Shown here: positions 5,836-46,600 of the stretch, in pieces | How the letters are laid out: each line of letters starts with the position of its first letter | Position numbering within the stretch: position 1 is the first letter of the stretch | Assembly (NCBI GenBank): GCA_029263355.1 | Contig: JAJCXQ010000420.1 | Span: 1,540-65,539, forward strand | Direction: 5' to 3' | DNA: 64,000 bases | Source of the DNA: Acidobacteriota bacterium | GTDB lineage: Bacteria; Acidobacteriota; Thermoanaerobaculia; Multivoradales; J023 | The notes under the pieces: generated by a model | Database searches by the model: none | What the model was told of the DNA's origin: nothing | What the model saw: only the letters and a program-made list of their open reading frames with translations | Position numbers and translations under genes: made by a program

Positions 5836-6402
5836 TCATGATCCGGCCTCGCTCTGCAGGCGGCGCACGTAGGCGATGATCGCCCAACGGTCACGCGGCG
5901 GAATCGGATATTTGTAGCCCGACATCAAGCCGAGGCCATTGGTGATGACGTCGAACATCTGGCCGTCAGGTATGTCAAGCAACCTTTGCTGGTGGAGGTC
6001 CGCGGATTCGATCTGCGCCCGTTCCCACAGCACCCCTTTGCCGGTACCACGCTGATTGTGGCACGGGGCACAGTAGATGTCGTAGCGCTCTTTGCCGCGC
6101 AGCACGAGCTCTTCATCAATTTCAAAAGGAATCTTGGAGACGATCGCCCCAGCTTCATCGAGGCCGGTGTAGAACGCCGTGTCTTCATGCAACTCGCCGC
6201 GCGCCACGGTACCTTCCAGCGGCAATCGCATCGTCGCGCCATCGTAGAAGAAGTCGCTCGCCGCTTGCGCCCGATACTTCGGTTGATGGTCCATGTTGGG
6301 ATTGGGATGAATCGGCGGACGAGGTGAGGTCGCACCGCGCCAACAACCAGACACTGTGACCAACAGCAAGACTGCGATTACCTTGGCTCTTGTGCCGTTC
6401 AC
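5836..6402 (-). CDS. lipoprotein monoheme cytochrome c (ActE-like)
   Basis: CAPCH motif and lipobox LLVTVSGC. GTG start at 6400-6402 is preceded by GAGGA. The ORF-track extension to 6561 overlaps the actB 3' end. Confidence 0.7.
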   Translation of the reverse strand: MNGTRAKVIAVLLLVTVSGCWRGATSPRPPIHPNPNMDHQPKYRAQAASDFFYDGATMRLPLEGTVARGELHEDTAFYTGLDEAGAIVSKIPFEIDEELVLRGKERYDIYCAPCHNQRGTGKGVLWERAQIESADLHQQRLLDIPDGQMFDVITNGLGLMSGYKYPIPPRDRWAIIAYVRRLQSEAGS

Positions 6403-30100: not shown

Positions 30101-33100
30101 CCAACAGTTCAATACGCCGACTTTTCCATCTGGCAGCACGAGTGGCTAAGCGGTGACCATCTGCAAGAGCTGATCGGTTACTGGATAGAGAAGCTCGGCG
30201 GCGCGCCGCCAGTGCTGGAGCTCCCTACCGATCACCCGCGCCCGCCAGTGCCTACTTTCCACGGCGCGACTGCGGCAGAGCGGTGGTCACAAGAACTGGT
30301 CGAGGGGCTCCAGAAGCTCAGCCGGCGTGAGTCCTCGACTCTCTACATGGTGCTGCTCACCGGACTCAAGGCACTCCTGACGCGCTACACCGGCCTGACG
30401 GATATTAGTGTGGCATCGCCGATCGCCAACCGCAGTCGGCCCGAGATCGAAAATCTCATCGGGTTTTTTGTCAACACCCTGGTGATGCGGACGGATCTCG
30501 GCGGCGACATCGATTTCGACGAAGCGCTGGACCGCGTCCGCGAAGTAGCGCTAGGGGCCTTCGGTCATCAAGACGTGCCTTTTGAGCAGGTCGTCGAGGT
30601 CATGCAGCCGGAGCGAACTCTCAGCCACTCGCCACTGTTTCAGGTGATGTTCGTTCTACAGAACGCCACTTCGGACTCGATGCGTCTCCACGGTCTCGAA
30701 GTGACCCCGCTGGCCAGCCGTTCCGAGACCGCAAGGTTCGATCTCACCCTGGTGGTGACTGAACAGACGACCGGCGAACTGCAGGTCATGCTGGAGTACA
30801 GCACCGATCTTTTCGAGCACGCCACAATCTGTCGACTCCTCGATCACTATCGACGACTCCTCGAGGTTGTGGTGGCTGATCCCGAGCAGAGCCTCTGGGA
30901 GGCCGACATGCTGGCGCCGCACGAGCGCAACCAGCTACTCGCCGAGTGGTCTGGCAAACAGACCGACTACCCGAGCTCGGCTACCGTCGGCCAGCTTCTG
31001 GCTGAGCAGGCCGGCGAGCGGTCAGATGCCATCGCCGTCGTTTTCGACGACGAGCATCTGACCTATTCGGAGCTGGTGCGCCGAGCCGCGGCCCTCGCCT
31101 CGAGCCTGCGGCAAACAGGCCTTCGCCCCGGGGCTGTCGTCGGCCTCCTGACGGACCGCTCTCTGGAGTTGGTGGTGGCGCTGGCCGGCATCCTGCAGTC
31201 GGGCGCCGCATACCTGCCGCTCGATCCCTCTTATCCGGAGGAGCGACTGGCCTTCATGCTCGAGGACGCTGGCGTCGAGGTCCTCGTGGCACAGCCCCCG
31301 CTGCTCAAAGGCTTGCCGGCCGAGGGACTGACGGTGCTCGCCCTCGAACCCGGAACCGCCACCGCGCCCTCGGACACTGCGTCGAGGCACAAAGAGGAGC
31401 CAGCAGCGCTCTCCACCCAACAGCTGCATACGGCGCCAGAGAGCCTGGCCTACGTGATGTACACCTCGGGTTCGACTGGGCGGCCCAAGGGCGTCGGAGT
31501 GCCACACCGCGCCGTGGTCCGCCTAGTCCGGGACACCGACTATGTCCGTCTCGACGCCGGAGAGGTCATCCTGCAGCTGGCACCAATCTCTTTCGACGCG
31601 TCGACCCTCGAGATTTGGGGCTGTCTCCTCAACGGTGGCCGCTTAGCCGTGGCGCCGCCCGTAGCGCCAACTCTCAGCGAGCTCGGTAACTCGCTGCAGC
31701 GCCACCGGGTGTCGACGCTGTGGCTGACCGCGCCGTTATTCCATCAGATGGTGGACGCCGAGCCCGAGGCCCTGGCTGGGGTCCGTCAGATCCTCGCTGG
31801 CGGCGACGTGTTATCTCTCCCCCATTCCCGACGGGCCTTGGAAGCGGGTGTCGAACGCCTGATCAATGGCTACGGTCCGACCGAGAACACCACCTTCACC
31901 TGCTGCTTCGGCATGGACCACGTCGACGACGCATGGACCACCATTCCGATTGGGCGACCGATCGCCAATACCTCCGTTTATGTCCTGGACGCGCACGGTC
32001 TGCCGGTACCGCACGGCGTACCCGGAGAGCTGTACACCGGCGGCGACGGCCTTGCCTGGGGCTATTGGGACCGCCCTGCCCACACCGCTGCTCGTTTCGT
32101 GCCTGACCCCTTCGCCTCCGATGGCCGGTTATACCGGACCGGCGACCGCGTACGCTGGACAACAGCTGGCACGGTGGAGTTTCTGGGGCGGGTTGACCAC
32201 CAGATCAAGCTTCGCGGTTTCCGCATCGAGCTCGGCGAGATAGAAGTCTGTCTGGCCCAACATCCCCAGGTCGAAGAATGTGCGGTCGTACTTCGCGAGG
32301 ATACGCCGAGTGAGAAAAGGCTCATCGCTTACGTCGTCGCGACGTCAGAGCCGCCGCCGTCCGCTTCAGCCTTGCGATCCTTTGTCAAGGAACATCTTCC
32401 GGGTTACATGGTGCCTGCGATCGCCTTGTTGTTGCCCGAGCTACCGCTCAATCCGAACGGCAAGATCGACCGTGCTGCTCTGCCGGCCCCAGAAGATTTG
32501 ACGGCTGAGACCGGTATCGTGCCGCCGCAGACCCCGATCGAGGAAGTTGTAGCGGGAATCTGGGGCGACGTGCTGGGGGTCGACGCCGTCGGTCGCAGCT
32601 CTGACTTTTTCGACCTCGGTGGCCATTCGCTGCAAGCGACGCGAGTGACCTCACGGTTACGACGAGCCTTCGGCATCAACGTGCCGCTCAGAACGCTGTT
32701 CGAGGGCGCGACGGTGGCCAGCCTGGCAACCCTGGTCGAGAGCTCTCGCATCGAAGGAAAACCCAGCGCGCCACCGATCCTCCCCGTGAGCCGCGACAGT
32801 CACATGCCACTGTCTTTCGCACAGCAGCGACTATGGTTCCTCGACCAGCTCGAGCCCGATTCGATCCACTACAACGTGCCGGCCGTTTTCCGAATGGTTG
32901 GGCGGCTCGATCGGTCGGCTTTGGCCGCGACTCTCGACGCATTAGTGCAGCGCCACGAGGTACTGCGCACCCGCTTCCCTGCGATCGAAGGCAGGCCGGT
33001 GCAAGAAGTCCAAGAGATCTCGGCGGAGCTGCCGTTGATCGACCTGAGCTCTCTCGCCGAGCCACAACGCGACGCCCAGGTTCAGCACCTCTGCCGGACT

Positions 33101-36100
33101 GAGAACACTCGCCCCTTCGACCTCTTGAACGGCCCTGTGCTGCGCCTTCGGTTGCTGGCTCTCGGTCCCGAGGAGCACCTCCTCCAACTCAGCCTCCACC
33201 ACATTGTGGCCGATCTCTGGTCAATGGAAGCCCTGGTGAGCGAACTGCGGGAGCTTTACCAGGGACTGCTCGAGGATCGACCGATTAACCTTCCGGACTT
33301 GCCGGTGCAATATGCGGACTTCGCGACCTGGCAACGAAAGTGGCTAGCCAGCGACCTCTCTAAGGAGCTCACAGCTTACTGGCTGGAGCACCTCCGTGAT
33401 ATGGCGTCCTTGGTCGAGCTTCCGGCCGATCGGCCCCGTCCAACATCGCGCAGCCTGCGCGGTGCTATTGAGCGGGCTGCCTTGCCAACGGATCTGAGTG
33501 ATGACCTGCGCAGATTTGCGCGGCAAGAAGATGTCACCCTCTATATGACCCTCCTGGCCGGATTCCAGCTCCTCATCGCCCGCTACACGGGTCAATGGGA
33601 TGTCAGCGTCGCAGCGCCGATCGCGAACCGTCACCGACCGGAGATCGAGAACCTGATCGGGTTTTTCGTCAACACGCTGGTCATGCGGGCCGACCTATCA
33701 GGCCAACCGAGCTTCCAGGAAACCGTCGCTCGTGTGCGAGAAACCGCACTCGGTGCCTACGCCCATCAGGATTTGCCGTTCGAGCGCTTGGTAGAGCTGC
33801 TGCAGCCCGAAAGGGCCCTCAGCCATACGCCTCTGGTGCAGGTCATGTTCGTCCACCAGAGCTCTCAGGCGACGGCGTTGGAGCTCTCCGGACTCGAAAT
33901 CAGCTCACTCCCCCAGCGCACGGACACCGCCAAATTTGACCTCACTGTCGTCGTCGATGAGGACTCTGACCAGCTTCAGACAGTCGAAGTCGAATACAGC
34001 ACGGATTTGTTCGACCCAGGGACCATCCGACGCCTGATCGATGCGTTCCGCGTCCTGCTGACCGGCGCCATGGCCGATCCAGAGATGCCGACCGGCTACC
34101 TGCCACTGCTCTCCGCTACGGAGCGTCGCAAGATCGTGGAAGGCTGGAACCAGACCCAGCGGTCCTACCCTTCCGAGTCTTCTCTGTGGAGCCTCTTTTC
34201 CGAGCAAGCCGCCGCCCGACCTGACGCCGTAGCGATCGAGTATGGAGCCGACCAACTCAGCTACGGGGAGCTCGCGCGGCGGGCTCGACGCCTGGCTTCG
34301 GAGCTGCAAGCATCCGGTGTCGAGCGTGGCCACTGTGTGGGGGTTTATCTCGAACGCTCGCTGGCGCTTGCGGAAGCGGTCGTCGGCATCTTGGCGGCTG
34401 GCGGCGCCTACGTTCCGCTCGACCCCGAGTATCCCGCCGAGCGTCTCGACTTCATGATCGAGGATACGGGCTTGGCAATGGTGATCACGGCCACGAACGA
34501 GCTGCCGGTGGGCATCGTTGCCGCCGAGATCAACCTCCATCGACTATCGGACGCCACGCCTGAGGCTACCGAGATGGTGAGCGACGGTGACGATATTGCG
34601 TACGTCATCTATACCTCGGGCTCCACTGGACACCCCAAGGGTGTCACCGTACCCCAGCATGCCGTCGCCCGGCTTCTGCTCGGCACCGACTTCCTTCAGC
34701 TCGCTCCAGGCGACCGTGTCGCCCAGGCATCGACCACCTCATTCGACGCCGCGACCTTCGAAATCTGGGGGGCCCTGCTCAACGGCGGCCGCTTGATCGG
34801 CCTCGAGCGCCAGGTAACTCTGGAAGCCAAACATCTTGCCGAGGACCTTCGGCGGCGACGGGTCGACAGCCTGTTCACCACAACAGCGCTCTTCAACCAG
34901 ATTGTCCGTCAAGACTCCACTGCCTACGGTAGCTTGCGCGATCTTCTTTTCGGCGGCGAGGCGGTCGATCCCAATGCCGTGCGCCAAGTCTTAGCTGGAA
35001 GCCCACCCCAGCGGCTACTCCATGTCTACGGTCCTACCGAGGTGACAACATTCGCCACCTGGCACCTAGTGACTGAAGTTCCCGCCGCAGCCACAACCGT
35101 GACCATCGGCCACCCGATCGGCAACACCACGGCCTACATCACTGACGAGCGCCTCCAGCCCTTACCCATCGGCGTCCCGGGTGAGCTTCAACTCGGCGGC
35201 GACGGTCTTTCCCGCGGCTACTTCGCCCGCCCTGCACTCAGCGCCGAGCGTTTCGTGCCCAACCCTTTTGCCGATAGCGAGCGCCTCTACCGCACCGGAG
35301 ACCGCGTGCGCAGCCGCCAAGACGGCACCATCGAGTTTCTCGGCCGCGTTGACCATCAAATCAAGCTCCGAGGTTTCCGTATCGAGCTGGGAGAAATCGA
35401 AGCCCTTCTCGCCCAGCACCCCGAGATCGACGCCGCGACCGTGCTCCTGCGCGAAGATCGGCCCGGCGACAAGCGACTCGTGGCCTACGTCGTAGCCCAT
35501 CCAGACTTGCCTCTCCTCGCCGACCAACTCCAAGCTTTCCTCGGAGAGCAACTGCCCCAATTCATGATCCCGGGCTTCTTCGTCAGCCTCGATAGCCTGC
35601 CGTTGACAGCCAACGGCAAGATAGATCGAAGCGCTCTGGTTGCTCCCGAAGATTTACAGCTGCTCGCAGAAGGCGATCTGGCACCGCCACAAACGCCCGT
35701 TGAAGAAGCGGTTTCGACCATCTGGGAGGAGGTTCTGCAGCGCAACAGAATCGGGCGCAACGCCAACTTCTTCGACCTCGGGGGCCATTCACTACTTGCC
35801 ACCCAGGTGGTTTCCCGAGTGCGCCAGACTTTTCAAATCGACCTACCGATCGCCGAAATCTTCGAATCTCAGACCGTGAAGGGACTCGCCGCCCGAATCA
35901 GCGAAGCGTTGCCCACTGCCGACACCCTCGTCGCGCCTCCCATACGTCGCAGGGCCCGCGGTGAGCGACTGCCTTTGTCTTTCGCTCAGCAGCGCCTCTG
36001 GTTTCTCGACCAGCTGCAACCCGACAGTGACCAGTACAACATCCCGGCGTTCTTTCGTGTTCAGGGCTTGCTCGACACCACGGCTTTCGAAGCGGCCCTA

Positions 36101-37489
36101 AGAGAGATAGTGCGTCGGCACGAAGTTCTACGGACTCGCTTTCTGAGGGTCGATGGCACGCCTGAACAAATCATCGACGAAACGTCCGACTTCGTCGTCG
36201 AGCGCGCCGACTTGACCGACATGCCACCGGAGCAGCGAGAGGTCGAGGTCCGACGCCTGGCGCGGAAAGAGGCGAAGCAGCCCTTCGACCTCGCAACCGA
36301 TCCCGTTCTGCGCGCAAAGCTCCTAAGCCTTAGCGATGACGAACACGCCTTGTTCCTGACCGTGCACCACATTGCCGCCGACGGTTGGTCGCTGGGTATC
36401 CTGATGCGCGAGCTGACCCCCCTCTACGAGGCGTTTCGCCGCAACGAACCATCGCCACTGCCGGAGCTCACCCTTCAGTACGCGGACTTCTCGGTCTGGC
36501 AGCGCAAATGGCTCTCGGACACAGTGCTCGATCGCCAACTGGATTATTGGCGACAACGTCTCGATGGCGCACCACCGGCTCTCGACCTACCTGCTGATCG
36601 ACCACGGCAGGCCCAACCGACACTAGCCGGCGGCAGGGAACCACTAGAGATCCCCAAGCAGCTCGCCGGACAGATCAAAGAGTTCGCCCGGACCCGCAAC
36701 GCGACACTGTTCATGACCTTGCTGGCGGCCTTCAAGACACTTCTCATGCGCTACTCCGGGGTGGACGACATCGTTGTCGGCACCCCGGTTGCCAACCGCA
36801 ATCGGGTAGAGACTGACGGATTGATTGGCTTCTTCGTCAACACCCTGGTCCTGCGTTCTGACCTCGGTGACAACCCAAGTTTCTTGCAACTTCTCGAGCG
36901 AGTTCGAGAGGTCACACTCTCAGCTTACGCCCATCAAGACTTACCTTTTGAGCGCTTGGTCGAGGAGCTCGTCCCAGCACGAGACCTCTCGCGCACGCCG
37001 CTCTTTCAGGTGATGTTCGTGGTGCAGAACACTTCTCCGATCGCGACCGAGTTGGCGGACCTTAACCTCACTCCGATGCCGATCAAAGGTGATAGTTCGA
37101 AGTTCGACCTGACTCTCAGCGTGGCAGAGACTGAGGACACTATTACCGCACTCGCCGAGTACAGCAGAGATCTCTTCGATCCACCAACCATCCGACGGTT
37201 GTTGCAGAGTTTCCGTATTTTGCTCGAAGGCATCGTGGAAAACCCAGAGGCACGTTTGGCAGATCTTCCCTTGCTCGAACCCAGCGAGCGCGCCCGCTTG
37301 CTGGCGGCCGGCGGACCTGCCTTCGAAACCACTCCGAGCGGAGTCAGTCTCGGCACGCTCTTCGCGCGCCAGGCAGCGGCCGATCCGGAACGTGTCGCGA
37401 TGGTGTCCGCCGACGACAGCTGGACCTATGGTGACGTCGATTCACAATCGACCGGCCTGGCGCAGCTACTCAAGGAGCTGGTCCAATGA
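18134..37489 (+). CDS. non-ribosomal peptide synthetase 1: (A-T-C)x6 plus the first ~70 aa of adenylation domain 7
   Basis: 6451-aa ORF. A3 cores YTSGSTGxPKG lie near nt 18670, 21870, 25060, 28260, 31460 and 34610. Carrier-protein serines lie near 19846 (GAHSL), 23045, 26260, 29420, 32625 and 35785 (GGHSL). LCL-type C domains (LSFAQQRLWFL, HHxxxDG) lie near 20420, 23620, 26835, 30000, 33200 (HHIVADL) and 36365. There is no starter C domain. The gene ends ...WTYGDVDSQSTGLAQLLKELVQ*, just after the A1 motif. An alternative start is GTG 18212. Confidence 0.95.
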   Translation: MPGDRCRALRAAGEASVLQNIVEARTVTGVYPSEASLWQLFADQAETRPDAVAVEYGAELLDYGELAHRARRIAAALQTAGVERGDRIGLYLERSPALIESMLGILAAGGAYVPLDLDYPAERIAFMIEDADVSVVVTAASELPGGIEATVLALSQVPAIAAAPSELPSIGGADLGCVIYTSGSTGRPKGVSVPQRAVSRLVLGTDYLQIVPGDRVGQVSNASFDAATFEIWSALLNGGRLVGLERQLSLDADQLATELRSRRVDSLLHTTAPFNHIVHQNPTTYSSLRDLMIGAEAAVPRVVRRVLDTASPQRLLNLYGPTEATTLATWHPVTEVPDDATTIPIGRPIANTAAYIVDEHLKPVPGGVAGELLLGGDGLAHGYFAKPALSAERFVPNPFGDGERLYRTGDRVRSRDDDNIEFLGRVDNQVKLRGFRIELGEIEATLAQHPEVDSATVLLREDEPGDKHLVAYIIGRPGSSPEDVLLRTFLEDRLPNFMLPSAYVFLDALPLTPNGKVDRNALPVPPKVRSTTSEEAALATPLERQLAEIVSELLGLEEVGIHENLFTLGAHSLLAARLITRLRRELNQELSVTELFAHPTVAELAESIEGKAGQPRAESLNLVQVDRSAGLPLSFPQERIWFLEQLAPGNIAYNFQAQIELDGPLDPHLCQRSLSEIVRRHEIFRTRFAAVNGQPVQVVTPPFSVELPVIDLGAIPREEAERRIERAVAIDVRRPFDILQLPLIRWRLFRLADERWVLFQMEHHFVHDGWSFSVYLREFKEIYQAFAAGRPSPLPELRIQFGDYVAWHRRRMQGEVLEECQNYWLRRLQGSPQTLELPTDHPRPPVLRYRGGMVQVELPLDLARRARERSRALGVTLFNTMKAAFDVLLYRYTGQTDLLVGTGAANRRWPETEGLLGMLVNSLILRSDLAGNPSFEQLAKVSREAFRRDWVYEDVRLDLLVEKLAPERDLSRNPLFQVTFSFHDSPEPDLEFAGLRGVPRMLHNGSAKADFNVVVIPRAEQRVGREPRPEQEWIRLHWEYSTDLFERSTVERIASHYLNLLADAVQHPEKEISNLTLLSAEERREVVVDWNQTAQPYPAEASLWRLFADQAAARTDAVAVEYDAEQLSYGKLAHRARRLAATLKAAGVERGDCVGLYLERSAPLIEAILGILAADAAYVPLDPDYPEERLGFMIGDTGLSVVVTDADELPATFGATALNLSQLSAAELTHPPVSDGSDLAYVIYTSGSTGRPKGVAVPQHAVARLVLGSDYLQLATSDRVAQASTFSFDAATFEIWSALLNGGRLVGLERQKTLDAESLDSELRGRRIDSLFTTTALFNQIVQQDPTAYASLRDLLFGGEAVDTRAVRRVALAAPPKRLLHVYGPTEVTTFATWTSVTEISDGAITVPIGRPIANTTAYVVDERLRPLPVGVPGELLLGADGLARGYFARPALSAERFVPNPFGDGERLYRTGDRVRTRHNGAIEFLGRVDHQVKLRGFRIELGEIEANLSQHPELSAAAVLLREDRPGDKRLVAYVATSTDADDLPLQLRTFLNERLPSFMMPHVFVALDTLPLTPGGKVDRSSLPLPEAFAGEEDGGEHYVAPRTPTEEVLAAIWEGLLGSSRVGLHDDFFDLGGHSLLAMQVISRARQAFDVELPLEVLFESPTVARLAARVKATLNTKADTLPALQPQPANTEPVLSFAQVRLWFLDRLEGPTSRYNVPVGIRLRGALRTAALTDSLNTVVDRHEPLRAYFPEVGGHPRLTIVEQLRLRLSSIDLRGLSPAVAEIEREQLLLDAFTRSFDLERGPLVRAYLLRLADDDHVLFLNMHHIVTDGWSIGVLVREVAALYAAKIDGRPSPLAPLPIRYADFAAWQRHWFEGDFLDQHLGFWRQQLAGSPPLLEVPTDRPRREDSTAPGAWETVVYPVARTAELNHLAIAEDSTQFMTLLAGFQALLSRYSRQQDLTVGTPVSGRNRLEVENLIGFFVNLLVLRTDLTGDPNFRQLLRRVRRTTVTAFAHQDVPFEQVVEALKPPRSLARTPLFQAMFVLQEPALSELRMQGLEVEPVVVIPVEAKYDLNLAVTPRREGLVAAMEYNTDLFDRVTIHRFLGHLGALFEAVVENPETRLSRIPLLTPAERSELAANMNVAQPLADGARPDAVAAFEAQVQRSPTAPALMARDRSLAFEDVDCSANRLARFLLDNGIGPEQTVGLAGERTPELAIALLAIFKAGAVALPLDSRLPGERFDFIVADSGVAAILGSAPQMSERDDNTDSIVLLPFPSKEDLARYSSESLELVRQPEQLAYIIYTSGSTGAPKGVGVSHGALGRQLAFGPRYYRFSPQDRLLHTASFSFDVAFEDLLAPLTVGAAVIFSDPDLPAPAQLLADIRHRGVTAVDLTPAYWAQILDEVEKHDTTGLEELTTVIVGGEALPPSAVERWCRLAPPTQRLLNAYGPTEAVITTTIYEVDRRRADIGWPRTPIGQVFGDRLLVVTDPGGEPTPVGVPGELAIGGQFLARGYHARPRETANNFRPDTFSHTAGTRLYRTGDLVRTRGDGDLEFLGRIDHQIKLRGFRIELGEIEAVLCLHREVNECAILLREDTPGNPRLVAYLIVARGQQPADDLRAFLAAQLPDYMVPSVFVGLPSLPLTANGKIDRQALPLPEDVTSQTTERIPKPSTSPFGELVAAIFSDVLSAGEVRLDADFFDLGGHSLLATQVISRVKRALGVGLPLRALFENPTPEALGQKIADARSDGRSDGHARREPPLLISVGRQRPTVLSFAQQRLWFLEQLQGEPGLYNFPVVLELDGALDAEALAASLHAIIRRHEALRTTFPATDGKPTQRILERIQLSLGPIEDAGNATEERLTAEASRPFDLATGPLIRSRLFRIGPDRHLLLLTLHHIICDGWSLAVLNRELMTLYDAFCSGRPNPLEELPAQYADFAAWQRRWLSGEVLDGQLGYWSQRLAAMPPLLEMPTDRPRPAVRTFRGANQELSLPSELASRLVAFSRQRDVTLFMTLLATFQTLLMRHSGQTDIVVGTGIANRNRAEIEDLIGFFVNTLLMRGDLSGRPSFLTLLDRVREAALGAYEHQDLPFELLVEHLQPERSLSHSPLAQVFFLLQNAPLGDPRIPGLEVRPREIDTHTSKFDLSLSLIETETGLEGSLVYRSDLFDHTTVSRLLNQFTVLLRSAVAGPRRSIVDLAMLSNEERHQALVEWNDTTAPTLATTLQHRFAAQAAMAPDHIAAVFGAHTLSYGELERRTEHLARHLCQLGAGPETPVALAVERSLELVVGVLAVLKTGGAWVPMDPALPEERLAYILEDSGARLILTQLQSQLPPFWEGTGVSTVYLDAEPSDAEDNNSPAPLPQVSENNLAYVIYTSGSTGRPKGAGLTHRGLANLCSAQGAAFGVGSSDRVLQFSALSFDASVFEIAMALPAGATLCLAERFELLPGPDLIGLLKDLRITAVTLTPTAVAALPVGELPALRTMVVAGEAFPPDLARRWGTGRRLVNAYGPTEATVWATACTYRTGSETLPIGLPIQGVVANVTDASLKATPIGVAGELTLTGHGLARGYLGLPAKTASAFVPSAWGTEPGARLYRTGDRVQRLSDGAFEFLGRIDYQVKLRGFRIELGEIESVLADHHEIEQCAVVLREDGSGDKLLVAFLTAAFDPPPTVEELRAFLQAQLPEYMVPGRFVPLPELPLNPSGKIDRNALPDPDRLVDEGADYTPPSNLTEEVVASIWAEILGCERVGAGANFFDLGGHSLLATQVVARLRRAFNVEIPLRTLFQHPSLEDLAARIDAETVADRPAASAPPIRAARRDGEIPLSFAQRRLWFLDQLLPGTSHYNIPAFFRLEGHLDLAALEATASALLLRHEALRTRFPEVGGVATQVISEPAPVALPLVDLGGIAETERGNEVERLLRREAERPFDLVAGPVTRWHVVRLGAEEHVLLLTLHHIVFDGWSMGVLVRELDALYRAAVEGEQCALSAPTVQYADFSIWQHEWLSGDHLQELIGYWIEKLGGAPPVLELPTDHPRPPVPTFHGATAAERWSQELVEGLQKLSRRESSTLYMVLLTGLKALLTRYTGLTDISVASPIANRSRPEIENLIGFFVNTLVMRTDLGGDIDFDEALDRVREVALGAFGHQDVPFEQVVEVMQPERTLSHSPLFQVMFVLQNATSDSMRLHGLEVTPLASRSETARFDLTLVVTEQTTGELQVMLEYSTDLFEHATICRLLDHYRRLLEVVVADPEQSLWEADMLAPHERNQLLAEWSGKQTDYPSSATVGQLLAEQAGERSDAIAVVFDDEHLTYSELVRRAAALASSLRQTGLRPGAVVGLLTDRSLELVVALAGILQSGAAYLPLDPSYPEERLAFMLEDAGVEVLVAQPPLLKGLPAEGLTVLALEPGTATAPSDTASRHKEEPAALSTQQLHTAPESLAYVMYTSGSTGRPKGVGVPHRAVVRLVRDTDYVRLDAGEVILQLAPISFDASTLEIWGCLLNGGRLAVAPPVAPTLSELGNSLQRHRVSTLWLTAPLFHQMVDAEPEALAGVRQILAGGDVLSLPHSRRALEAGVERLINGYGPTENTTFTCCFGMDHVDDAWTTIPIGRPIANTSVYVLDAHGLPVPHGVPGELYTGGDGLAWGYWDRPAHTAARFVPDPFASDGRLYRTGDRVRWTTAGTVEFLGRVDHQIKLRGFRIELGEIEVCLAQHPQVEECAVVLREDTPSEKRLIAYVVATSEPPPSASALRSFVKEHLPGYMVPAIALLLPELPLNPNGKIDRAALPAPEDLTAETGIVPPQTPIEEVVAGIWGDVLGVDAVGRSSDFFDLGGHSLQATRVTSRLRRAFGINVPLRTLFEGATVASLATLVESSRIEGKPSAPPILPVSRDSHMPLSFAQQRLWFLDQLEPDSIHYNVPAVFRMVGRLDRSALAATLDALVQRHEVLRTRFPAIEGRPVQEVQEISAELPLIDLSSLAEPQRDAQVQHLCRTENTRPFDLLNGPVLRLRLLALGPEEHLLQLSLHHIVADLWSMEALVSELRELYQGLLEDRPINLPDLPVQYADFATWQRKWLASDLSKELTAYWLEHLRDMASLVELPADRPRPTSRSLRGAIERAALPTDLSDDLRRFARQEDVTLYMTLLAGFQLLIARYTGQWDVSVAAPIANRHRPEIENLIGFFVNTLVMRADLSGQPSFQETVARVRETALGAYAHQDLPFERLVELLQPERALSHTPLVQVMFVHQSSQATALELSGLEISSLPQRTDTAKFDLTVVVDEDSDQLQTVEVEYSTDLFDPGTIRRLIDAFRVLLTGAMADPEMPTGYLPLLSATERRKIVEGWNQTQRSYPSESSLWSLFSEQAAARPDAVAIEYGADQLSYGELARRARRLASELQASGVERGHCVGVYLERSLALAEAVVGILAAGGAYVPLDPEYPAERLDFMIEDTGLAMVITATNELPVGIVAAEINLHRLSDATPEATEMVSDGDDIAYVIYTSGSTGHPKGVTVPQHAVARLLLGTDFLQLAPGDRVAQASTTSFDAATFEIWGALLNGGRLIGLERQVTLEAKHLAEDLRRRRVDSLFTTTALFNQIVRQDSTAYGSLRDLLFGGEAVDPNAVRQVLAGSPPQRLLHVYGPTEVTTFATWHLVTEVPAAATTVTIGHPIGNTTAYITDERLQPLPIGVPGELQLGGDGLSRGYFARPALSAERFVPNPFADSERLYRTGDRVRSRQDGTIEFLGRVDHQIKLRGFRIELGEIEALLAQHPEIDAATVLLREDRPGDKRLVAYVVAHPDLPLLADQLQAFLGEQLPQFMIPGFFVSLDSLPLTANGKIDRSALVAPEDLQLLAEGDLAPPQTPVEEAVSTIWEEVLQRNRIGRNANFFDLGGHSLLATQVVSRVRQTFQIDLPIAEIFESQTVKGLAARISEALPTADTLVAPPIRRRARGERLPLSFAQQRLWFLDQLQPDSDQYNIPAFFRVQGLLDTTAFEAALREIVRRHEVLRTRFLRVDGTPEQIIDETSDFVVERADLTDMPPEQREVEVRRLARKEAKQPFDLATDPVLRAKLLSLSDDEHALFLTVHHIAADGWSLGILMRELTPLYEAFRRNEPSPLPELTLQYADFSVWQRKWLSDTVLDRQLDYWRQRLDGAPPALDLPADRPRQAQPTLAGGREPLEIPKQLAGQIKEFARTRNATLFMTLLAAFKTLLMRYSGVDDIVVGTPVANRNRVETDGLIGFFVNTLVLRSDLGDNPSFLQLLERVREVTLSAYAHQDLPFERLVEELVPARDLSRTPLFQVMFVVQNTSPIATELADLNLTPMPIKGDSSKFDLTLSVAETEDTITALAEYSRDLFDPPTIRRLLQSFRILLEGIVENPEARLADLPLLEPSERARLLAAGGPAFETTPSGVSLGTLFARQAAADPERVAMVSADDSWTYGDVDSQSTGLAQLLKELVQ

Positions 37490-37650
37490 TCGAGAATCGA
37501 CAACTTCACCTACCACAGCGAGATCTCATCGCCGCCGGGTTGAAGTCACCGGCATTCCACGATCGCCTCGGCCCCGACCGGCCCCTCGATCCGGGCAAGA
37601 CAGCTGCGCCCCGAGAGTCCATCGGAAACCGAGGAGCCCGAAGCTCATGA
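37486..37650 (+). CDS. 54-codon ORF nested between NRPS genes 1 and 2 (hypothetical; possibly just a coupling spacer)
   Basis: MIENRQLHLPQRDLIAAGLKSPAFHDRLGPDRPLDPGKTAAPRESIGNRGARSS. Its ATG overlaps the NRPS1 stop (CAATGA, 37484-37489) and its TGA overlaps the NRPS2 ATG (TCATGA, 37645-37650). It is below the ORF-track size cut-off and has no recognisable domain. Confidence 0.35.
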   Translation: MIENRQLHLPQRDLIAAGLKSPAFHDRLGPDRPLDPGKTAAPRESIGNRGARSS

Positions 37651-40600
37651 GTACGTCCAGCGGTTCGCGCGAATCGCTCGTCGGCCTGATGGCCGACAAA
37701 GGGCCAGAGGTCGTCGTCGGGATCCTCAGTATCCTGCGTTCGGGCTGTGCCCTGGTGCCGATCTCCCCCGACTACCCCGAAGAGCGGATCGGGTTCATTG
37801 TCGAAGAATGCGGCATCGAAGTCCTCCTGACCCAGAGCCACTATCTCGAAAAGGTAGTCCGGTTGGCGACCGTCACCACGGAGCTCCGCCATGTAGTCTG
37901 CCTCGACGGAGAGCCGGAGGCACCGATCGTCGGGGCACCCTTCACGGTGCATGGGCCCGAGGCCTGGCAGCATCGCGACGGCGAGGCCAATAGCGCGGCG
38001 GCCGAGCAGCTGGCCTACGTCATCTACACCTCAGGCTCCACCGGCCAACCTAAGGGTGTGCCCATCACCCATGACAACTTGGTCCCGCTCCTCCTCTGGA
38101 GCCGCGACTACTTCGGCTTCGGCGAGCAAACCCGTGTGGCGTCGAGCCTCTCCTACTGGTTCGACTTCGGCCTCTTCGAGATCCTCAGCACCCTGCTCTT
38201 CGGCGGCCAGCTCTACCTGCCGCAAGCCGACGAAAGCGACGATCCCGCCCGGTTTGCCTCTTGGATCGCCGAGCGCCGGCTCAACACCCTGCATGGCACG
38301 CCGTCATTCATGCGCGAGATCACTGGCGCGGCAACACAACCGCTGACCGATCTTCAGGTACTTCACCTCGGCGGAGAGGCGCTGGTTCGCCCCGAGATCG
38401 ACCGGCTGTTCGAGGCGGTGGGAGAGCAGTGCGTGCTCTACAACGGCTACGGCCCTACCGAGACCAGTGTCAACAGCGCAATCTTCACGATCGGTAGCCG
38501 CGCCGAGCGGCACGACGACGGCAGTGCCAATACACCGATCGGCAACGCCTCCGCCGACAACCGCTTGTATGTCCTGGACCGCCAAGGAAACCCGGTACCG
38601 ATCGGAGTCGCCGGGGAGCTGCACATCGGAGGTGCTGGGCTGTCACGTGGGTACTGGCAGCGACAGCAGCTGACTGCAGAGCGATTCCGGCCCGATCCCT
38701 TCGGCGACGTCCGAGGCGCCCGCCTCTATCGCACCGGTGACATCGTCCACTTCCGGCCCGATCTCGCCATCGAATTCCTGGGACGCGTCGACTATCAGGT
38801 CAAGCTCCGCGGCTTTCGTATCGAGCCCGGCGAGATCGAAGCGGCGCTATTGGAGCACCCAGCGGTCAATGAGTGCGTCGTGGTGCTGTGGGGGGAGTCT
38901 CCAGAGGAGCAACGCCTGGTCGCCTACGTCGCAGCTGCCACCGAGCAATCTCCGGGACCCGAGGAGCTCCGTGCCTTCCTGCGTGAGCTGCTGCCCCATT
39001 TCATGATCCCTGGCACCTTTCTCGCCGTGCCTCAGCTACCGCGCACGGCAACCGGCAAGCTCGACCGGCAGGCTCTACCCGCACCGCCACAAGTCGAAGC
39101 CGATAATGCGCTTGTTCTGCCTCCGGCGACACCGACAGAAGAGGTGGTGGCAGGCACTTGGCAAGAGGTGCTGGAGCGCACCGAGATCGGCCGCGATGCC
39201 AACTTCTTCGACCTCGGTGGCCACTCTCTCCTCGGTACCCAGGTGATCTCCCGGCTGCGCCGTGCCTTCGATGTTGATCTGGCGATCGCCTCGCTGTTTC
39301 ATTCTCCCACCGTCCGCGGGTTGGCGGAGGAAATCGACGCCGCGCTCGAGGCTACCGGTGGGGCAAGTCTGCCTCCGATTCGCCCGGTGCCCCGAGATCG
39401 GGTGTTGCCGCTGTCCTTCGCCCAGCAGCGGCTCTGGTTCCTCAACCAGGCAGCACTGGACAATCCAGCCTACAACGTGCCCAGAGTGACGCGGCTCGAG
39501 GGCGAGCTCGACATCCCAGCGCTGGCAGCAACCTTCGACGAGATTCTCCGCCGCCACGAGATTCTGCGCACCAGCTACCCGGTCGTCAGCGGCCAGGTCC
39601 GTCAAGTGATCGCCGATGACGCCACGCTCGGACTGTCCGTTATCGACCTCGCGGCGCTACCGGCTGAGGAACGAGAGGAGCTCCGCCTGCGTCTCGTTCG
39701 GCAAGAGTCCCGCAGGCCGTTCGACCTCGCACACGGGCCGGTCATCCGCGGTCATGTGGTTCGTCTCGACCCGCGCGATCACGTCCTTCTACTCACCCTC
39801 CACCACATCGCTTGGGATGGCTGGTCACTCGGTATTTTCGATCGCGAAGTGCATGTGCTGTATGAAGCTTTTCGCCATCGACAACCCTCACCGTTGCCGG
39901 AGCTTCCGGTCCAGTATGCGGACTACGCCGTCTGGCAGAGGCAGGTGCTGGAGGGTGAGATGCGGGAGCAGCAGCTCGGCTACTGGCGGCAAGTGCTGGC
40001 GGGGGCGCCGCCGCTGCTGGCGCTGCCCACCGATCGTCCACGCCCCTCGGTTCTCAACCAGCAGGGAGCGATGGAGCACATCGGCTGGCCTTATGAGCTT
40101 CTCAAGGAGTTGCGCCAGCTCAGTCGCAGCCAGGACGTCACTTTATTCATGACGCTCCTCGCTGGCTGGCAGGAAATCCTCAGCCGCTACTCTGGACAGC
40201 TGGACATCTGCATCGGCTCCGGGACCGCCAATCGTAACCGGGTCGAGACCGAAGGGATGATCGGTTTCTTCGTCAACACGTTTGCCCTGAGGACTGATCT
40301 GTCGGGGAGGCTGACTTTTCAAGAGCTTCTCGGTCGCGCACGCGAGACGGCCCTCGGAGCTTATGCGCACCAGGAAGTACCCTTCGAGCAGGTGGTCGAA
40401 GCAGTCCAGCCGCAGCGCTCTGCGAGCTATTCACCAATATTTCAGGTGACGTTCGGCCTGCAAAACATCGCCGCCGAGGCGACCAACCTTTCCGGGCTCG
40501 AACAGCGTTCGGACTTGATCGGCACCGGCGGTGCCGTGTTCGACTTGACCCTGTTTATGCTCGAGACCCCCGAAACTCTGGATAGCCTCGTCGAATACAG

Positions 40601-43600
40601 TGTCGATCTGTTCGACCGCGTCACCATCGAGCGGCTGATGAAGCACCTCCGCCGCCTGCTGGAGCAGGCGGTTGCCGACCCGCGTCGAGAGGTCGCGACA
40701 CTCAGCTTGCTGAGCGCCGAGGAGCGGCAGCAGCTAATGACGGGTTGGAATCTCACCGCCCGGCCATACCCTCGGCAGGCGGGCCTGGCGGAGCTATTCG
40801 CCGGCCAGGTCGCCCGACGCCCCGAGGCGGTTGCATTGCAGTTCAGCGATGGCCAGCTGAGTTACGTCGAGCTCGATCGGCGGGCTCGCCTGCTGGCTAC
40901 CGAGCTCGGTGCCAGCGGCGTCGGCAATGGCTCGCTCGTCGGCCTCTGCCTCGAGCGCTCCACCGCCCTGGCGGTTGGCATCCTTGGTATTCTCCAGGCC
41001 GGCGGTGCTTACGTCCCCCTCGATCCCGACTACCCCGACGAACGCCTCGCCTTTATGGCCGAGGACGCCGGCCTCGCGGCGGTGGTCACCGGGCAAACAC
41101 ACGCCACCGACCTGCCTGACTTGGGGGTCCCGACGCTACTCCTCGAGCGCGTGCTCACCGTCGAGGCCAACGTTTCGGCGAGTGCTGACGGCGGCGGCGA
41201 CCTCGCCTACGTCATCTACACCTCTGGCTCTACCGGCCGCCCCAAGGGCGTGGGAGTGCCGCAGCGCGCCGTGGCCCGCCTAGTCCTTGGCGCCGACTAC
41301 GTCGACCTGTGCCCCGGTGACCGCATCGCCCAGGTTTCCACCGCCTCGTTCGACGCCGCAACCTTCGAGATCTGGGGCGCCCTGCTCACCGGCGGACGCC
41401 TCGTCGGGCTCGAACGCAAAATCACCTTGGAGCCCGCCGAGCTCGCCGCCGCCCTCGCTCGCCATCGCATCGATACCCTGTTCCTCACCACCGCTTTGTT
41501 CAATCAGGTTGTCCACCTCGAGCCCGCTGCCTTCGCAGGGTTGCGCGAGCTACTGTTCGGCGGCGAGGCAGTCGACCCCAATGCGGTGCGCAGCGCCCTG
41601 GCCGCGGGGCCACCTCGCCGTCTGCTGCATGTTTATGGCCCCACCGAGTCGACCACCTTCGCCACCTGGTACGAGGTCGACCACGTCGCTGCCAAGGCCG
41701 CCACCGTCCCGATCGGCCAGCCACTGGCCAACACAACCGCCTACGTGTTCGACCGTCACGGCGAGCTTTCGGCCATCGACGTGCCGGGCGAGCTCTTCCT
41801 GGGCGCCGACGGCCTCGCCCTAGGCTACCTCCACCGCCCCGCCTTGACCGCGGAACGCTTCGTCCCCCACCCCTTCATAGAGGACGAACGCCTCTACCGC
41901 ACCGGCGATCGAGTACGCCGACGCGCCGACGGCACCATCGAGTTCCTGGGCCGCGGCGACCACCAGATCAAGCTCCGCGGGTTTCGCATCGAACTCGGCG
42001 AGATCGAGGCCGTTCTGCGCAAGCATCCGGCCATCGGCGATGCGGCCGTCGTTCTCGCCGAATCGCTCCCGTTCGACAAGCAACTGGTTGCTTACGCGGT
42101 GCCCACGGCACAGGCCACCCTGCCTACCGCCGAACTGCGGGACTTTCTCGGTGAGCGCCTGCCGGACTATATGGTTCCTCACCTTTTCGTCGGCCTCCCC
42201 GAGCTGCCGCTCAACGCCAACGGCAAGCTTGATCGCAGCGCTCTGCCGGAGCCGGAATCTGGCTCCAGCCTCGAGCCAGATTCCGACGACGCCAGCCCAA
42301 AAACTCCCGTAGAGCGGCTGGTGGCGGAGATCTGGAGCGAGCTCCTGGGAATCGGGCCCGTCAATATCCACGACGATTTCTTCGAGCTCGGCGGCCACTC
42401 GCTGTCCGCAACCCGGATGATGGCTCAACTGAATCAGGCCCTGGGCATCTCCCTGCCGATCTGGGACCTGTTCGAAGGCCCAACCCTCGGCGAGCTAGCC
42501 GAGCGGGCGGCGGCAGCGCAGCTTTCCGAGGCCGGCGCGAGACCGGCGATCCTACCGGCTCCCGAGGAGACCGAACGCTGTCTGTCGTTCGCCCAGGAGA
42601 GGCTCTGGTTCCTCGACCACCTGGAGCCCGAGAGCCCAGTCTACAACGTCCCCCTCGCCCTCCGGCTCCAGGGTCCTCTCAATGCACGGGCCCTGAAGAC
42701 GAGTCTCGACGAGATCCTCCGCCGTCACGAGGTCCTGCGCACCTCTATGCCAGCAGTCAATGGCAAGGCGAGCATAAGGATCCACACGGACCGGCGGCTC
42801 GATCTTGCCGACATCGACCTGCGGTCAGTGGCCGAGTCAGCGAAAGCTGTGGCCTTGCGGCACATAGCGGGAGAGGAGTCGACACGCCCGTTCCGGCTCG
42901 CCATTGGGCCGCTAGTCCGCGGTCGGCTCGTCCGGCTGGCGGCAGAGGACTATGTCCTGCTGCTGACCATCCATCACATCGTCTGCGATGGATGGTCTAT
43001 GCCTGTCCTGATCCGCGAGTTGTTTGCCCTCTACGGAGCATTTTCCATCGATCGCCCTTCGCCGCTCGAGCCATTGCCGGTCCAGTACTCGGACTATGCC
43101 CGCTGGCAGCGCGACTGGCTCGAAGGGGAGACGCTCGAAGAGCAGATCGGCTACTGGCGGCAAACGCTCAGCGGGGCGCCATCGTTACTCCGGCTACCCA
43201 CCGACCGACCGCGGCCGTCGGTCCAGACCTACCGTGGCAACCTGGCCTCGACCGTCTACTCGCGGTCCCTTCTCGAGCGGGCCGCAGCGCTGGGTCGCAG
43301 CCATGAAGCGACCCTGTTCATGACCCTCCTCGCCGCCTTCCAAACGCTCCTCGGCCGTTACTCCGGCCAGCGCGACATCTGTATCGGTACGCCGGTCGCC
43401 AACCGCTCTCAGGCGGAAATCGAGGGGCTGATCGGTTTCTTCGTCAACACTTTGGTCATGCGCACATCCCTGTCCGATGAGTCGAGCTTCAGCCAGCTGC
43501 TGGCACAGGTGCGAGAGACGGCGCTCAGCGCCTTCAACCACCAGGAGCTGCCGTTCGAACGGGTGGTCGATACGTTGGCTCCAGAGCGTTCGCTGAGTTA

Positions 43601-46600
43601 CAGTCCGCTCTTCCAGGTACTCTTCACCCTGCAGGATGAACCGCTTCGAGAGCTCGAGGTCGGCAAGCTGAAGATCGCTCCCGCCGACTTCGGCGACGAC
43701 CAGGTTGCCAAGTTCGACCTCTCCATGGGGCTGATCGAGAACAAGCAGGGCCTTGTGGCGGCGATCGAGTACAACGTCGATCTTTTTGACCGGACCACAG
43801 TACTGAGGCTCCTGGAGCATCTCGGAACGCTTCTCGAGCAGGCGGTCGCCAGCCCTGACGAGTCAATCGAGCGCCTCGAGCTACTCACCGTCCGGCAGCG
43901 CTTCCAGTTGCTCGAGGAGTGGAACGCGACGCCGGTGATCGTCCCGCCGCTGGTGACGCTTGCCAGCCTCTTCGCAGCTCAAGCGAAGCGCGATCCGGAT
44001 CGCGTGGCGCTGATCGTCGGTGACGAGTCGCTCACTTTCGGCGAGCTCCGCAGCCGGGCTAAGCGCTGGGCGCGTCGGCTGGTGGACGACGGGATTGGAC
44101 CGGAGGTTGGCGTCGGGGTCTTCCTCGACCGCTCCTCCGATCTGGTGGTGGCGCTGCTGGCGGTGCTCGAGGCCGGCGGCTTCTACATTCCTCTCGATCC
44201 AAACTACCCGCCATCACGGGTGGAGCTACTGCTCCGAGACTCCGGTGCCAAAGTGGTGCTCACAAGCCTTGGTCTGTGCCACCAGCTGCCGCCGAACAGT
44301 GCTCGCCTGATCTGCGTCGACGCCGAGGCACCTGAACCGACATCGAACGCAGCAGGCGGCCGGCGTGCGGCCGAGAGCAACAACCTGGCTTACGTGATCT
44401 ACACCTCCGGCTCGACGGGTGTTCCCAAAGGGGTCGGTATCGAGCACCGCGCCACTGTCGCTCTGTTGAGCTGGGCTGCGCAGGTTTATGGCGAGGAGGA
44501 GCGGCGCGGCGTCCTGGCCTCGACATCGGTCTGCTTCGACCTCTCGATCTTCGAGCTCTTCCTGCCGCTGACCATGGGCGGCACCGTGGTGCTCGCCGAG
44601 AACCTCTTCGACCTCCCACGGCTGCCAGCGGCGGACCGGGTGAGTCTGGTGAACACGGTGCCCTCGGTTCTCGCTGAGCTCCTGCGATTCGGCGGCATGC
44701 CGCCGTCGGTCACAACCATCAACCTCGCTGGCGAGGCCCTGCAGAGCGACCTCGTCGACCGCCTCGGCGAGGCGGCCCGCGCCCCAGCAATCTACAACCT
44801 CTACGGGCCGTCCGAGTGCACCACCTACTCAACGACAGCGACGATCTCACCCGGGGTGGCCGACCCGGTGCCGATCGGTCAGCCGATCTCCAACACTCGG
44901 GCGTACATCCTCGACCGCCATCTCCAGCCGACAGCGCCCGGAGTCTTGGGAGAGCTGTTCCTGGCCGGTGCCGGCGTGGCGCGGGGTTATCTCGGGCGCC
45001 CCGTACAGACGGCCGAGAGCTTTCTGCCGAGCCCGTTCGGAGATGGCGATCGCCTGTACCGCACGGGGGACCTCGCACGGTTCGGTGGCGATGGCAGCCT
45101 GGAGTTCCATGGCCGTATCGACCGACAAGTCAAACTGCACGGCTTCCGGATCGAGCTAGAAGAGACCGAGGTTGTGCTGGCCCGACACCCTCAGGTCGGC
45201 GAAAGCGCTGTCGTCCTTCAGGATGACTCGGCTGGCCATCCACATCTCGCTGCTTACTTGGTGGCTTCCGACGGTCAAGCCCCCACCTCGGCCACGCTGG
45301 CGAGCTACCTCCGCGAGCACCTGCCGAACTATATGGTTCCCGGTACTTTCCGTCTCCTCGAGGAGCTGCCACGCACGCCCAACGGCAAGGTCGATCGTCG
45401 GGCACTGGCAACGATCCGCCTGGAGGCCGAGCTCGAGGGCCCGGAGCGTGGCGACTACGTCGCCCCGCGAAACGCTGTCGAAGAGCAGCTCACCGCCATC
45501 TGGAGCGAGGTTCTACAGAGAGAAACGGTGGGCGTCGATGACAACTTCTTCGAAATCGGCGGCGACTCGATCCTCAGCATCCAAGTCGCCTCCCGCGCCC
45601 AGCAAGCCGGCCTGCGCTTGACGACGAAGCAGCTATTCCAGGCGCAGACCATCGCCGAGCTGGCCAAGCTGGTCGGCACGGCGGCGACCGAGGCCGAACA
45701 GGGCATGGTGGTCGGCGAGGTACCGCTAACCCCCGCCCAGCGTTGGTTCTTCGCCCAGCGACCCGCCCACCCGCATCACTTCAACCAGGCCATTGTCCTC
45801 ACGCCGCGAGAGCAGCTGACCATGACGGCCCTGGACCGGGCACTATCGAGCCTGGTCGGCCACCACGACGCCCTGCGTCTGCGCTTCCGGCGACAAGGGG
45901 AGCACTGGGAAGCTTTCCAGTGTGACGACCTCGCGAGCTCGTTCCGCCTGCGCCGTGTGGATCTCTCCCGCCTCAGCGACGCCGACCGTCGCACCGCGCT
46001 CGAACGGTCTTTCGCGGTCGCCCACGCCAGCCTCCGGCTTGAGCAGGGGCCGCTCTTCGAGGCCACACTCCTCGACCTGGAACCAGAGACGCCGGGCCGC
46101 CTGCACCTGGTGGTCCATCACCTGGCGATGGACTGGGTGTCCTGGGGCATCCTGCTCACCGACCTGACACGAGCCTACGAGTCGGCAACGCGCGATGAGA
46201 AGATCGACCTCGGGCTGAAGACCACTTCCTTCCGCCAATGGGCGAGCTCCCTGGTCGAGGATGGAGTCCCCAGCATTGCCGAAGAGCGCGAGCACTGGCA
46301 CAGCACCGTCTTGCCATCGGTGCCTTCGCTGCCACGGGACTTTCCGGCCGGCGACAATTCCAGCGCTACCACAGAGCTGGCCAGCTCTGTGCTGAGCCGG
46401 GGAGAGACAGCCTCCCTGCTTCAAGCCGCTGGGGTCGCCTACCGAGTCCAGCCCCGGGATCTCGTGGTCGCGGCGCTCGCCGCGGGTATCGCCTCGGCGA
46501 CCGGTCAACGCCGCCTTCGCCTCGTCCTCGAGGGCCACGGCCGCGAGGAGCTACGCGACAGCCATGATCTCTCGCGAACCGTCGGCTGGTTTACGAGTAT

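Follow-up and report, generated by a model that had tools for sequence, protein, structure and literature searches.

The stretch analyzed here (the window) comprises 64,000 nt of contig JAJCXQ010000420.1, from an Acidobacteriota metagenome-assembled genome (MAG) of 948 contigs and 86.7% completeness. It carries a nonribosomal peptide synthetase (NRPS) line in which adenylation domain 7 (A7) is divided between two consecutive genes, NRPS1 and NRPS2, by a short gap that reads as a 54-codon open reading frame (ORF). The best overall explanation, with a probability of roughly 0.8, is that A7 belongs to a lineage of naturally two-piece adenylation domains and that a DUF3326 gene lying in its gap has been deleted. 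To judge from sequence comparison, the 163 nt of the gap are very probably the remains of that DUF3326 gene, and the break itself would have been inherited from a conserved family of split domains.

Anatomy of the split domain

NRPS1 stops about 57 residues into A7, and NRPS2 carries the remainder of the domain. The break lies between core motifs A1 and A2, and the two halves are in frames differing by +1. The features of the junction, together with the intact paralogue A11, are as follows (C, condensation; A, adenylation; T, thiolation; E, epimerization).

18134-37489 (+): NRPS1, 6451 amino acids; six full modules, then C7, then the A7 N-terminal fragment (from the ORF list and domain map)
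35963-37312 (+): C7 condensation domain, NRPS1 residues about 5944-6393; PF00668 full length, E 6.7e-117
37313-37486 (+): A7 N-terminal fragment; end of the C-A linker, a helix, two strands with core motif A1 (SWTYGDV), and the helix ...GLAQLLKELVQ
37472-37477 (+): AAGGAG, 8 nt before the ATG of the small ORF, encoded by Lys-Glu codons of the helix
37486-37650 (+): 54-codon ORF with ATGA overlaps at both ends, with the NRPS1 TGA and with the NRPS2 ATG (37647-37649)
37486-37575 (+): first 30 codons of the small ORF (MIENRQLHLPQRDLIAAGLKSPAFHDRLGP), judged homologous to the DUF3326 N terminus
37576-37646 (+): remainder of the gap, with GAGGAG (37631-37636), which lies 10 nt before the NRPS2 ATG and serves NRPS2
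37647-47165 (+): NRPS2; A7 minus its first ~57 residues, then T-C-A-T-C-A-T-E
37647-39068 (+): main part of A7, extending from the strand ahead of A2 to the end of A10; every core motif intact, pocket DFFHHGGVNK
51629-53314 (+): A11, uninterrupted paralogue of A7, 69-72% amino acid identity; loop ELAR-STSTNSRE-VLVG

The C terminus of NRPS1 reads ...WTYGDVDSQSTGLAQLLKELVQ (also given as ...SWTYGDVDSQSTGLAQLLKELVQ) and is followed directly by the stop, with the last sense codon, CAA, at 37484-37486 and TGA at 37487-37489. The N-terminal fragment corresponds to positions 1-40 of PF00501 and to positions 1-78 of our own A-domain hidden Markov model (HMM), and the head of NRPS2 corresponds to PF00501 positions 45-384 plus AMP-binding_C and to positions 79-521 of the same model. 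An earlier note on this DNA had described A7 as split over two genes by a 54-codon ORF with ATGA at both ends and GAGGAG 10 nt upstream of the second gene, and coordinates and Pfam agree with that description. Its estimate of about 163 to 169 extra nucleotides and a +1 frame shift also holds: the protein alignment of A7 to A11 is gapless across the break, and the net extra DNA is 163 nt (37487-37649).

The domain map of the whole line is A-T-(C-A-T)x5-C-A(N) / A(C)-T-C-A-T-C-A-T-E / C-A-T-C-A-T-C, and NRPS1 to NRPS3 remain open over >12,000 codons with motifs intact. Overlaps of 4 nt (GTGA) also join NRPS2 to NRPS3 (47162-47165) and NRPS3 to the next gene (55081-55084), so that a start-stop overlap is the standard gene coupling of this operon.

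The small ORF as the probable stub of a DUF3326 gene

The small ORF begins MIENRQLHLPQRDLIAAG (MIENRQ...), which may be compared with the starts of the DUF3326 proteins P0240 (MIENRQFRLNKFDVIGAG), P0150 (MIENRQYRIRKSELTG), and P0145 (MVENRQIRIKKSDL). Positions 1-29 of a full-length DUF3326 HMM align to residues 1-29 of the ORF, and do so in this frame only. Furthermore, a position-specific scoring matrix (PSSM) built from 19 DUF3326 N termini and anchored at the start codon gives the ORF a score of 15.4 against a null of -46 +/- 10 (z of about 6). This is the top score in the genome, reached by none of the 127,925 ATG-anchored open frames of 30 codons. The MIENRQ... start and the best match among so many frames indicate that the small ORF is the 5' stub of a deleted DUF3326 gene. 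At the nucleotide level, the first 54 nt have an identity of 0.49 to real DUF3326 genes, compared with 0.50 among those genes themselves.

The gap does not hold a full DUF3326 gene: codons 1 to about 30 are recognizable, and the gap measures 163 nt against at least 1.3 kb in the other loci. No trace of a DUF3326 C terminus is present in any frame of the last ~70 nt, the 54-codon ORF as a whole has no Pfam match, and a BLAST search of the full DUF3326 protein against the gap detected no relationship, so that the anchored PSSM and the full-HMM alignment were needed to recognize it. An AlphaFold2 (AF2) model of DUF3326 has a small N-terminal subdomain, of which the surviving 30 residues make up only the initial strand and helix, and with no more than these elements retained the product is not a working DUF3326 protein. 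The codon-usage score of the small ORF is intermediate, above 96% of shuffles and at the 4th percentile of real coding windows. No DUF3326 gene was found elsewhere in the genome, at the MAG completeness of 86.7%.

The 54-residue product was also searched against 1.84 billion representative proteins. Strong matches (E 1e-17 and 1e-13) were judged spurious, as they involve an ERLGPDNPL-like motif that occurs in up to 11 repeats in repeat proteins, and two further weak matches were likewise judged to be chance. The kinship with DUF3326 was missed in this search because only ~30 residues of a 418-residue family are left.

Split loci in other bacteria

The closest relatives of the A7 core are found in Acidobacteriota and are about 50% identical. 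Two proteins, P0003 (MRGKLIGLM...) and P0021 (MKKDSRPKLIGLI...), start at the same A-domain residue as NRPS2 (MSTSSGSRESLVGLM...). At the locus of P0021 (L098), the upstream gene, which encodes a fatty acyl-AMP ligase (FAAL), an acyl carrier protein (ACP), and a C domain, ends in an A-domain N-terminal fragment (...SFLSFQELNDQAERLAGLIRRIENDSE, then the stop). A complete DUF3326 (PF11805) gene of 417 amino acids overlaps that stop and is followed by P0021. Viewing the contigs of close DUF3326 homologues revealed the same layout at six more loci: L102 (Pyrinomonadaceae), L103 (Lysobacter enzymogenes CP110813.1), L109, L110, L111, and L112.

The boundaries of these seven loci coincide closely with those in the window. 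Each upstream gene keeps motif A1 and ends at A-HMM positions 76-78 (NRPS1 ends at 78), the DUF3326 gene of 417-430 amino acids starts 4-22 nt before the upstream stop, and the downstream NRPS begins at A-HMM positions 81-86 (NRPS2 begins at 79). The start of the DUF3326 gene forms an ATGA overlap in L102, L111, and L112, of the same form as that at 37486-37489 of the window, and GGAG-type sites occupy the equivalent place before the DUF3326 start in L098 and L102. In addition, the upstream genes of all seven loci have C-terminal tails that can be aligned with the A7 N-terminal fragment. DUF3326 is complete in every one of them, with about 60% identity across phyla. From these shared boundaries, the two-piece design with DUF3326 in the gap is an apparently inherited arrangement, present in at least two phyla.

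The arrangement is variable in detail. A second gap gene follows DUF3326 in two loci, one in Lysobacter enzymogenes (L103:6265-8850) and one on a metagenome contig (L109:5286-7862), encoding a protein of ~860 amino acids whose only domain is Lant_dehydr_N (glutamylation type); neither protein has an NCBIfam match. In L110 (2946-7259) the module is spread over three or four genes, comprising a stand-alone protein of 358 amino acids with C and the A N-terminal fragment, DUF3326, and an A(deltaN)-T protein of 618 amino acids, which indicates that the split occurs in mid-line modules too.

DUF3326 is rare in the phylum, being present in 4 of 401 genomes. Close homologues of the NRPS-associated type also occur outside NRPS clusters, at L099/L100:5001-6308, with glycosyltransferase genes around, and at L108:4553-5818, and these score >670 bits to the NRPS-type profile. 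Such homologues away from NRPS genes indicate that DUF3326 is not restricted to split A domains, and three distant DUF3326 genes (L105 to L107) likewise lie outside NRPS clusters. DUF3326 has no NCBIfam model and no PDB counterpart by sequence or by fold (TM <= 0.26). In the literature searched, DUF3326 is mentioned in three papers, none of which concerns NRPS, and the sole link is that of PavB to pavettamine.

Domain lineage and the paralogue A11

The split domains share substrate pockets as well as a break point. Among A domains with 47% or more identity to A7, split and contiguous members alike carry the pocket DFFHHGG[VI]NK or a one-residue variant of it. The pocket itself is found in six of the eight other split domains, the remaining two being those of L103 (DFYHHGGVNK) and P0003 (DFFNHGGVNK). 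In a maximum-likelihood tree of the A-domain part downstream of the break, the eight split domains and A11 form one clade (support 82/92), with contiguous members in neighboring clades, and A7 and A11 are sisters (support 100/100). The position of A11 within the split clade makes it most simply a re-fused copy.

The loop of A11 is in keeping with this origin. In ...LLEELAR-STSTNSRE-VLVG, the Arg matches the last residue of several upstream tails at split loci (..IQR, ..LTR, and ..IKR, each followed by the stop), whose final A supplies the ATGA overlap, and STSTNSRE corresponds to the NRPS2 leader M-STSSGSRE. Compared with the nine other A domains of the cluster, A7 and A11 have 5 additional residues in the loop after A1. 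An AF2 model of A11 puts the break at the C terminus of helix 68-89, ahead of loop 90-95 and then strand 96-101, and model confidence drops locally there. By tree and loop sequence, the simplest reading is that the split would have arisen once and that A11 represents a secondary re-fusion. The earlier note had treated module 11 as the surviving intact copy, a relationship that is better reversed.

The ratio omega between A7 and A11 is 0.3 on each side of the break, and the branch leading to A7 (0.21) is shorter than that leading to A11 (0.30). As a separate observation, core motif A3 of A11 (52261-52305) reads YTSGSPGRPKG, with Pro in place of the Thr of YTSGSTG.PKG, the form found in A7 and in the other nine domains; the odd phosphate loop is carried by the presumably re-fused A11, not the split A7.

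A third domain with this pocket (DFFHHGGINK) is encoded in the same genome on contig C874, at about residue 7217 of a frame of >8591 amino acids in a second large NRPS cluster. It is 49% identical to A7 and contiguous, with a normal loop. Two contiguous family members, P0013 and P0023, have no DUF3326 gene within 10 kb.

Two further observations concern boundaries elsewhere in the family and genome. The gene for P0013 shares 61 nt with the gene upstream (L113:10001-10062), and its product begins in the C-A linker (MVLEEW...), which may reflect another unusual C/A gene boundary or a frameshift. An isolated frame of 140 amino acids on contig C889 (5445-5864, minus strand) matches only the last 70 positions of the A profile, the Asub end, and could represent either a fragment or a small independent piece.

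Proposed mechanism and present state of module 7

The N-terminal fragment of ~57 residues (helix, two A1 strands, helix) ends the protein that carries the C domain, and the remainder of A7 begins the next protein. A deletion of about 1.2 kb would have spared only the ribosome-binding site, the ATGA start, and the opening ~30 codons of the DUF3326 gene, and the stub runs for 24 further codons in frame to a TGA that overlaps the NRPS2 start. In the proposed mechanism, the two pieces of A7 would assemble noncovalently, without DUF3326. NRPS1 would dock onto NRPS2 by insertion of the N-terminal fragment, which is covalently tied to C, into the A core, and also through the C-A interface that NRPS structures have revealed. 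The stub ORF itself would matter now only for keeping ribosomes on the message between the giant genes.

In the relatives, the halves are intact in seven loci from at least two phyla at ~50% identity, which suggests that they must form an active domain in trans. Whether this extends to the window is less certain, but the sequence features favor moderately the reading that the A7 halves still work together without DUF3326. All motifs of A7 are intact, A7 keeps the canonical A3 loop, and the stop, Shine-Dalgarno site, and ATG are cleanly arranged. The omega of 0.3 on both sides of the break and the A7 branch being shorter than that of A11 likewise give no hint of decay. DUF3326 may also be dispensable, given the C874 domain in a genome where no DUF3326 was found and the two contiguous relatives that have none nearby. 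The first alternative of the earlier note, a genuine split domain reassembled in trans, comes closest to this reading: the split is genuine, but the idea of an insert into an intact domain does not hold, as the break appears inherited and the 163 nt a DUF3326 remnant.

The alternative that survives best shares the anatomy and origin just described and differs in holding that module 7 is dead, so that the line would stall after residue 6 and represent an early pseudogene. The lost role of DUF3326 would then be substrate supply, modification, or help in joining the halves. This is possible, if unlikely. DUF3326 is complete and conserved (about 60% across phyla) in all seven intact split loci, none was found anywhere in the MAG, and the stub looks young. 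Against this, NRPS1 to NRPS3 are open over their >12,000 codons with motifs intact, the A7 branch is shorter than that of A11 with an omega of 0.3, three domains with this pocket persist in a genome in which no DUF3326 was found, and contiguous relatives do without a nearby copy. The clean arrangement of stop, Shine-Dalgarno site, and ATG would also be unlikely without continued selection. The earlier note had offered a recent insertion inactivating module 7 as its second alternative, which finds no support in that form; a recent deletion of the cargo gene takes its place, and a loss of function may have followed.

Several points weigh against a functional two-piece A7 with a deleted cargo gene. 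No orthologous cluster is present in the collections searched. The closest matches reach 50% identity at the protein level and 38% near the junction, with maxima of 37% in genome_contigs and 38% in metagenome_contigs, so that this cargo-less form of the split is not itself backed by conservation. The placement of A7 and A11 within the split clade has moderate support (82/92), and the sequence derives from one sample at about 7x depth, represented by contigs, not reads. The deletion may be recent, since real DUF3326 genes resemble the first 54 nt of the stub as closely as they resemble one another, and decay may not yet have had time to become visible. If module 7 needs DUF3326, the line may be dead, and a DUF3326 gene may lie outside the recovered part of the MAG.

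A broader reading, advanced tentatively, is that the loop after A1 is a natural cut-and-rejoin point at which the N-terminal fragment could snap back as a docking device without separate docking domains. The cluster would then record a cargo-less working split (A7) and a healed copy (A11), with the cargo-bearing state preserved in relatives. If this were true, the cut would be reversible and portable to mid-line modules, and DUF3326 would be a passenger enzyme and not part of the joint.

Other explanations of the gap

The 163-nt stretch is single-copy in its own genome by DNA search, and no copies were found in 40 relatives or in 400 genomes of the phylum. These searches returned only GC-rich chance matches of 17-57 nt, and none of the five own-genome matches inspected was coding related. 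A six-frame tblastn search of the gap against the genome gave only low-complexity Pro/Arg matches. The earlier note had held that many copies would mark the insert as a small mobile repeat; the search of the genome and its relatives found a single copy and no repeated element.

Three candidate explanations were rejected. Neither terminal inverted repeats (TIRs) nor a target-site duplication (TSD) was found at the stretch, and these absences, with one copy in the genome and 0 in 440 related genomes, argue against a small mobile repeat such as a miniature inverted-repeat transposable element (MITE) or one resembling repetitive extragenic palindromic (REP) elements. A self-splicing intron or structured RNA was rejected because the stretch has no Rfam match at E <= 10 and folds no better than shuffled sequence (z +0.8). 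An interrupted A domain, in which a single polypeptide contains an embedded domain, is incompatible with the TGA at 37487-37489 and with the +1 difference between frames.

It is improbable that the 54-residue product is a working microprotein, for example, an adaptor between the A7 halves. Such a role would be consistent with the Shine-Dalgarno site, ATG, open frame, and coupling at both ends, and with a codon score above that of 96% of shuffles. However, all that the product keeps of the N-terminal subdomain of DUF3326 is strand 1 and helix 1, it has no homologues once the chance database matches are set aside, and the same codon score ranks at the 4th percentile of real coding windows.

Slightly less probable is a recent insertion of random DNA into an intact A7, with the small ORF incidental. 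In favor of this explanation, the stretch is single-copy without a DNA-level homologue and its last ~70 nt could be assigned to no source, but the site of the break, the overlap as ATGA, and the ORF start reading MIENRQ... are all as in the split loci that bear DUF3326. When random 163-mers from the same genome were placed at the site, a first-codon stop and a last-codon start with a Shine-Dalgarno site arose in 8e-5 of trials, which indicates that the junctions were shaped by something besides chance. The lack of TIRs and TSDs and the anchored PSSM result, the best of 127,925 frames, also contradict a random origin.

An assembly or sequencing artefact, the third alternative of the earlier note, is very unlikely. 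The fragmentation and incompleteness of the MAG (948 contigs, 86.7%), the repetitive nature of NRPS modules, and a depth of only about 7 would allow for it. Nevertheless, a Logan contig (4304 nt, depth 7.4) from run X1, a biofilm metagenome and the one public run found to contain the stretch, covers 37087-38400, including both junctions, with 0 differences. Logan uses a different assembler, and the identical sequence it gives makes an artefact unlikely. No contig joining the flanks without the insert occurs among the Logan contigs of X1. Furthermore, a six-frame scan of the MAG with the A-domain HMM, which was built from the window, gave 58 full-length matches plus partial ones, among which the A7 break is the only internal break; all other partial matches are at contig ends or in non-NRPS ligases. 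The start of a DUF3326 gene at the split point of the family would not arise by artefact.

The least credible alternative is recoding by a +1 frameshift or ribosome hop that fuses NRPS1 and NRPS2 into one protein. In its favor, no stop interrupts the NRPS2 frame between 37392 and the end of the gap, and AAGGAG lies 6 nt before the last sense codon. Against it, CAA-TGA offers no re-pairing option, there is no slippery or matched take-off/landing codon and no CAA before 37650, the RNA evidence is negative (folding z +0.8, no Rfam match), codon usage along the read-through frame is of the out-of-frame kind (score -17 to -20), and relatives use separate genes.

Comparison with known systems

The term "split adenylation domain" was found in the literature searched only for Crz1/Crz2 (PMC11342130). 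In this corallorazine synthetase of Corallococcus coralloides, reported in 2024, one A domain is encoded on two neighboring genes, and adenylation occurs only when both proteins are mixed, which was described as the first experimental case (PMC11342130). A7 resembles Crz in that a single A domain is encoded by two neighboring genes. The site differs: Crz is divided at the natural Acore/Asub hinge, between A8 and A9 and after an embedded methyltransferase, whereas A7 is cut between A1 and A2, ~57 residues into the core fold. Unlike in Crz, the A7 split leaves C and the bulk of A on different giant subunits, and it goes together with DUF3326, here as a stub.

With a second conserved cut site, located deep within the N-terminal fold, NRPS engineers would gain a new division point between C and A, and complementation between fragments would appear able to take over from docking domains in joining subunits. 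The uncharacterized DUF3326 family would also become tied to one A-domain lineage. As the sequenced and laboratory-growable Lysobacter enzymogenes belongs to the family, these ideas are testable at the bench. For gene callers and biosynthetic gene cluster (BGC) tools, module 7 should not be scored as broken without further thought.

Interrupted A domains (A-MT-A, e.g., TioS and TioN) demonstrate that a surface loop tolerates foreign sequence, and the a2-a3 region near the N terminus is one such site. These are single polypeptides with an in-frame domain, whereas A7 has a stop and start, a separate gene, and a break in the loop before A2, not between A2 and A3. The nrdA gene of phage Aeh1 is split by mobE, a homing endonuclease gene, and its fragments reassemble into an active enzyme. 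The likeness is that of an enzyme gene cut by an intervening ORF; unlike mobE, DUF3326 shows no mobility features, and the arrangement is vertically conserved in a lineage of NRPS domains. In comparison with these systems, the window and its relatives are new in the other cut site, the defined cargo family, and the occurrence of a stub and a re-fused paralogue side by side.

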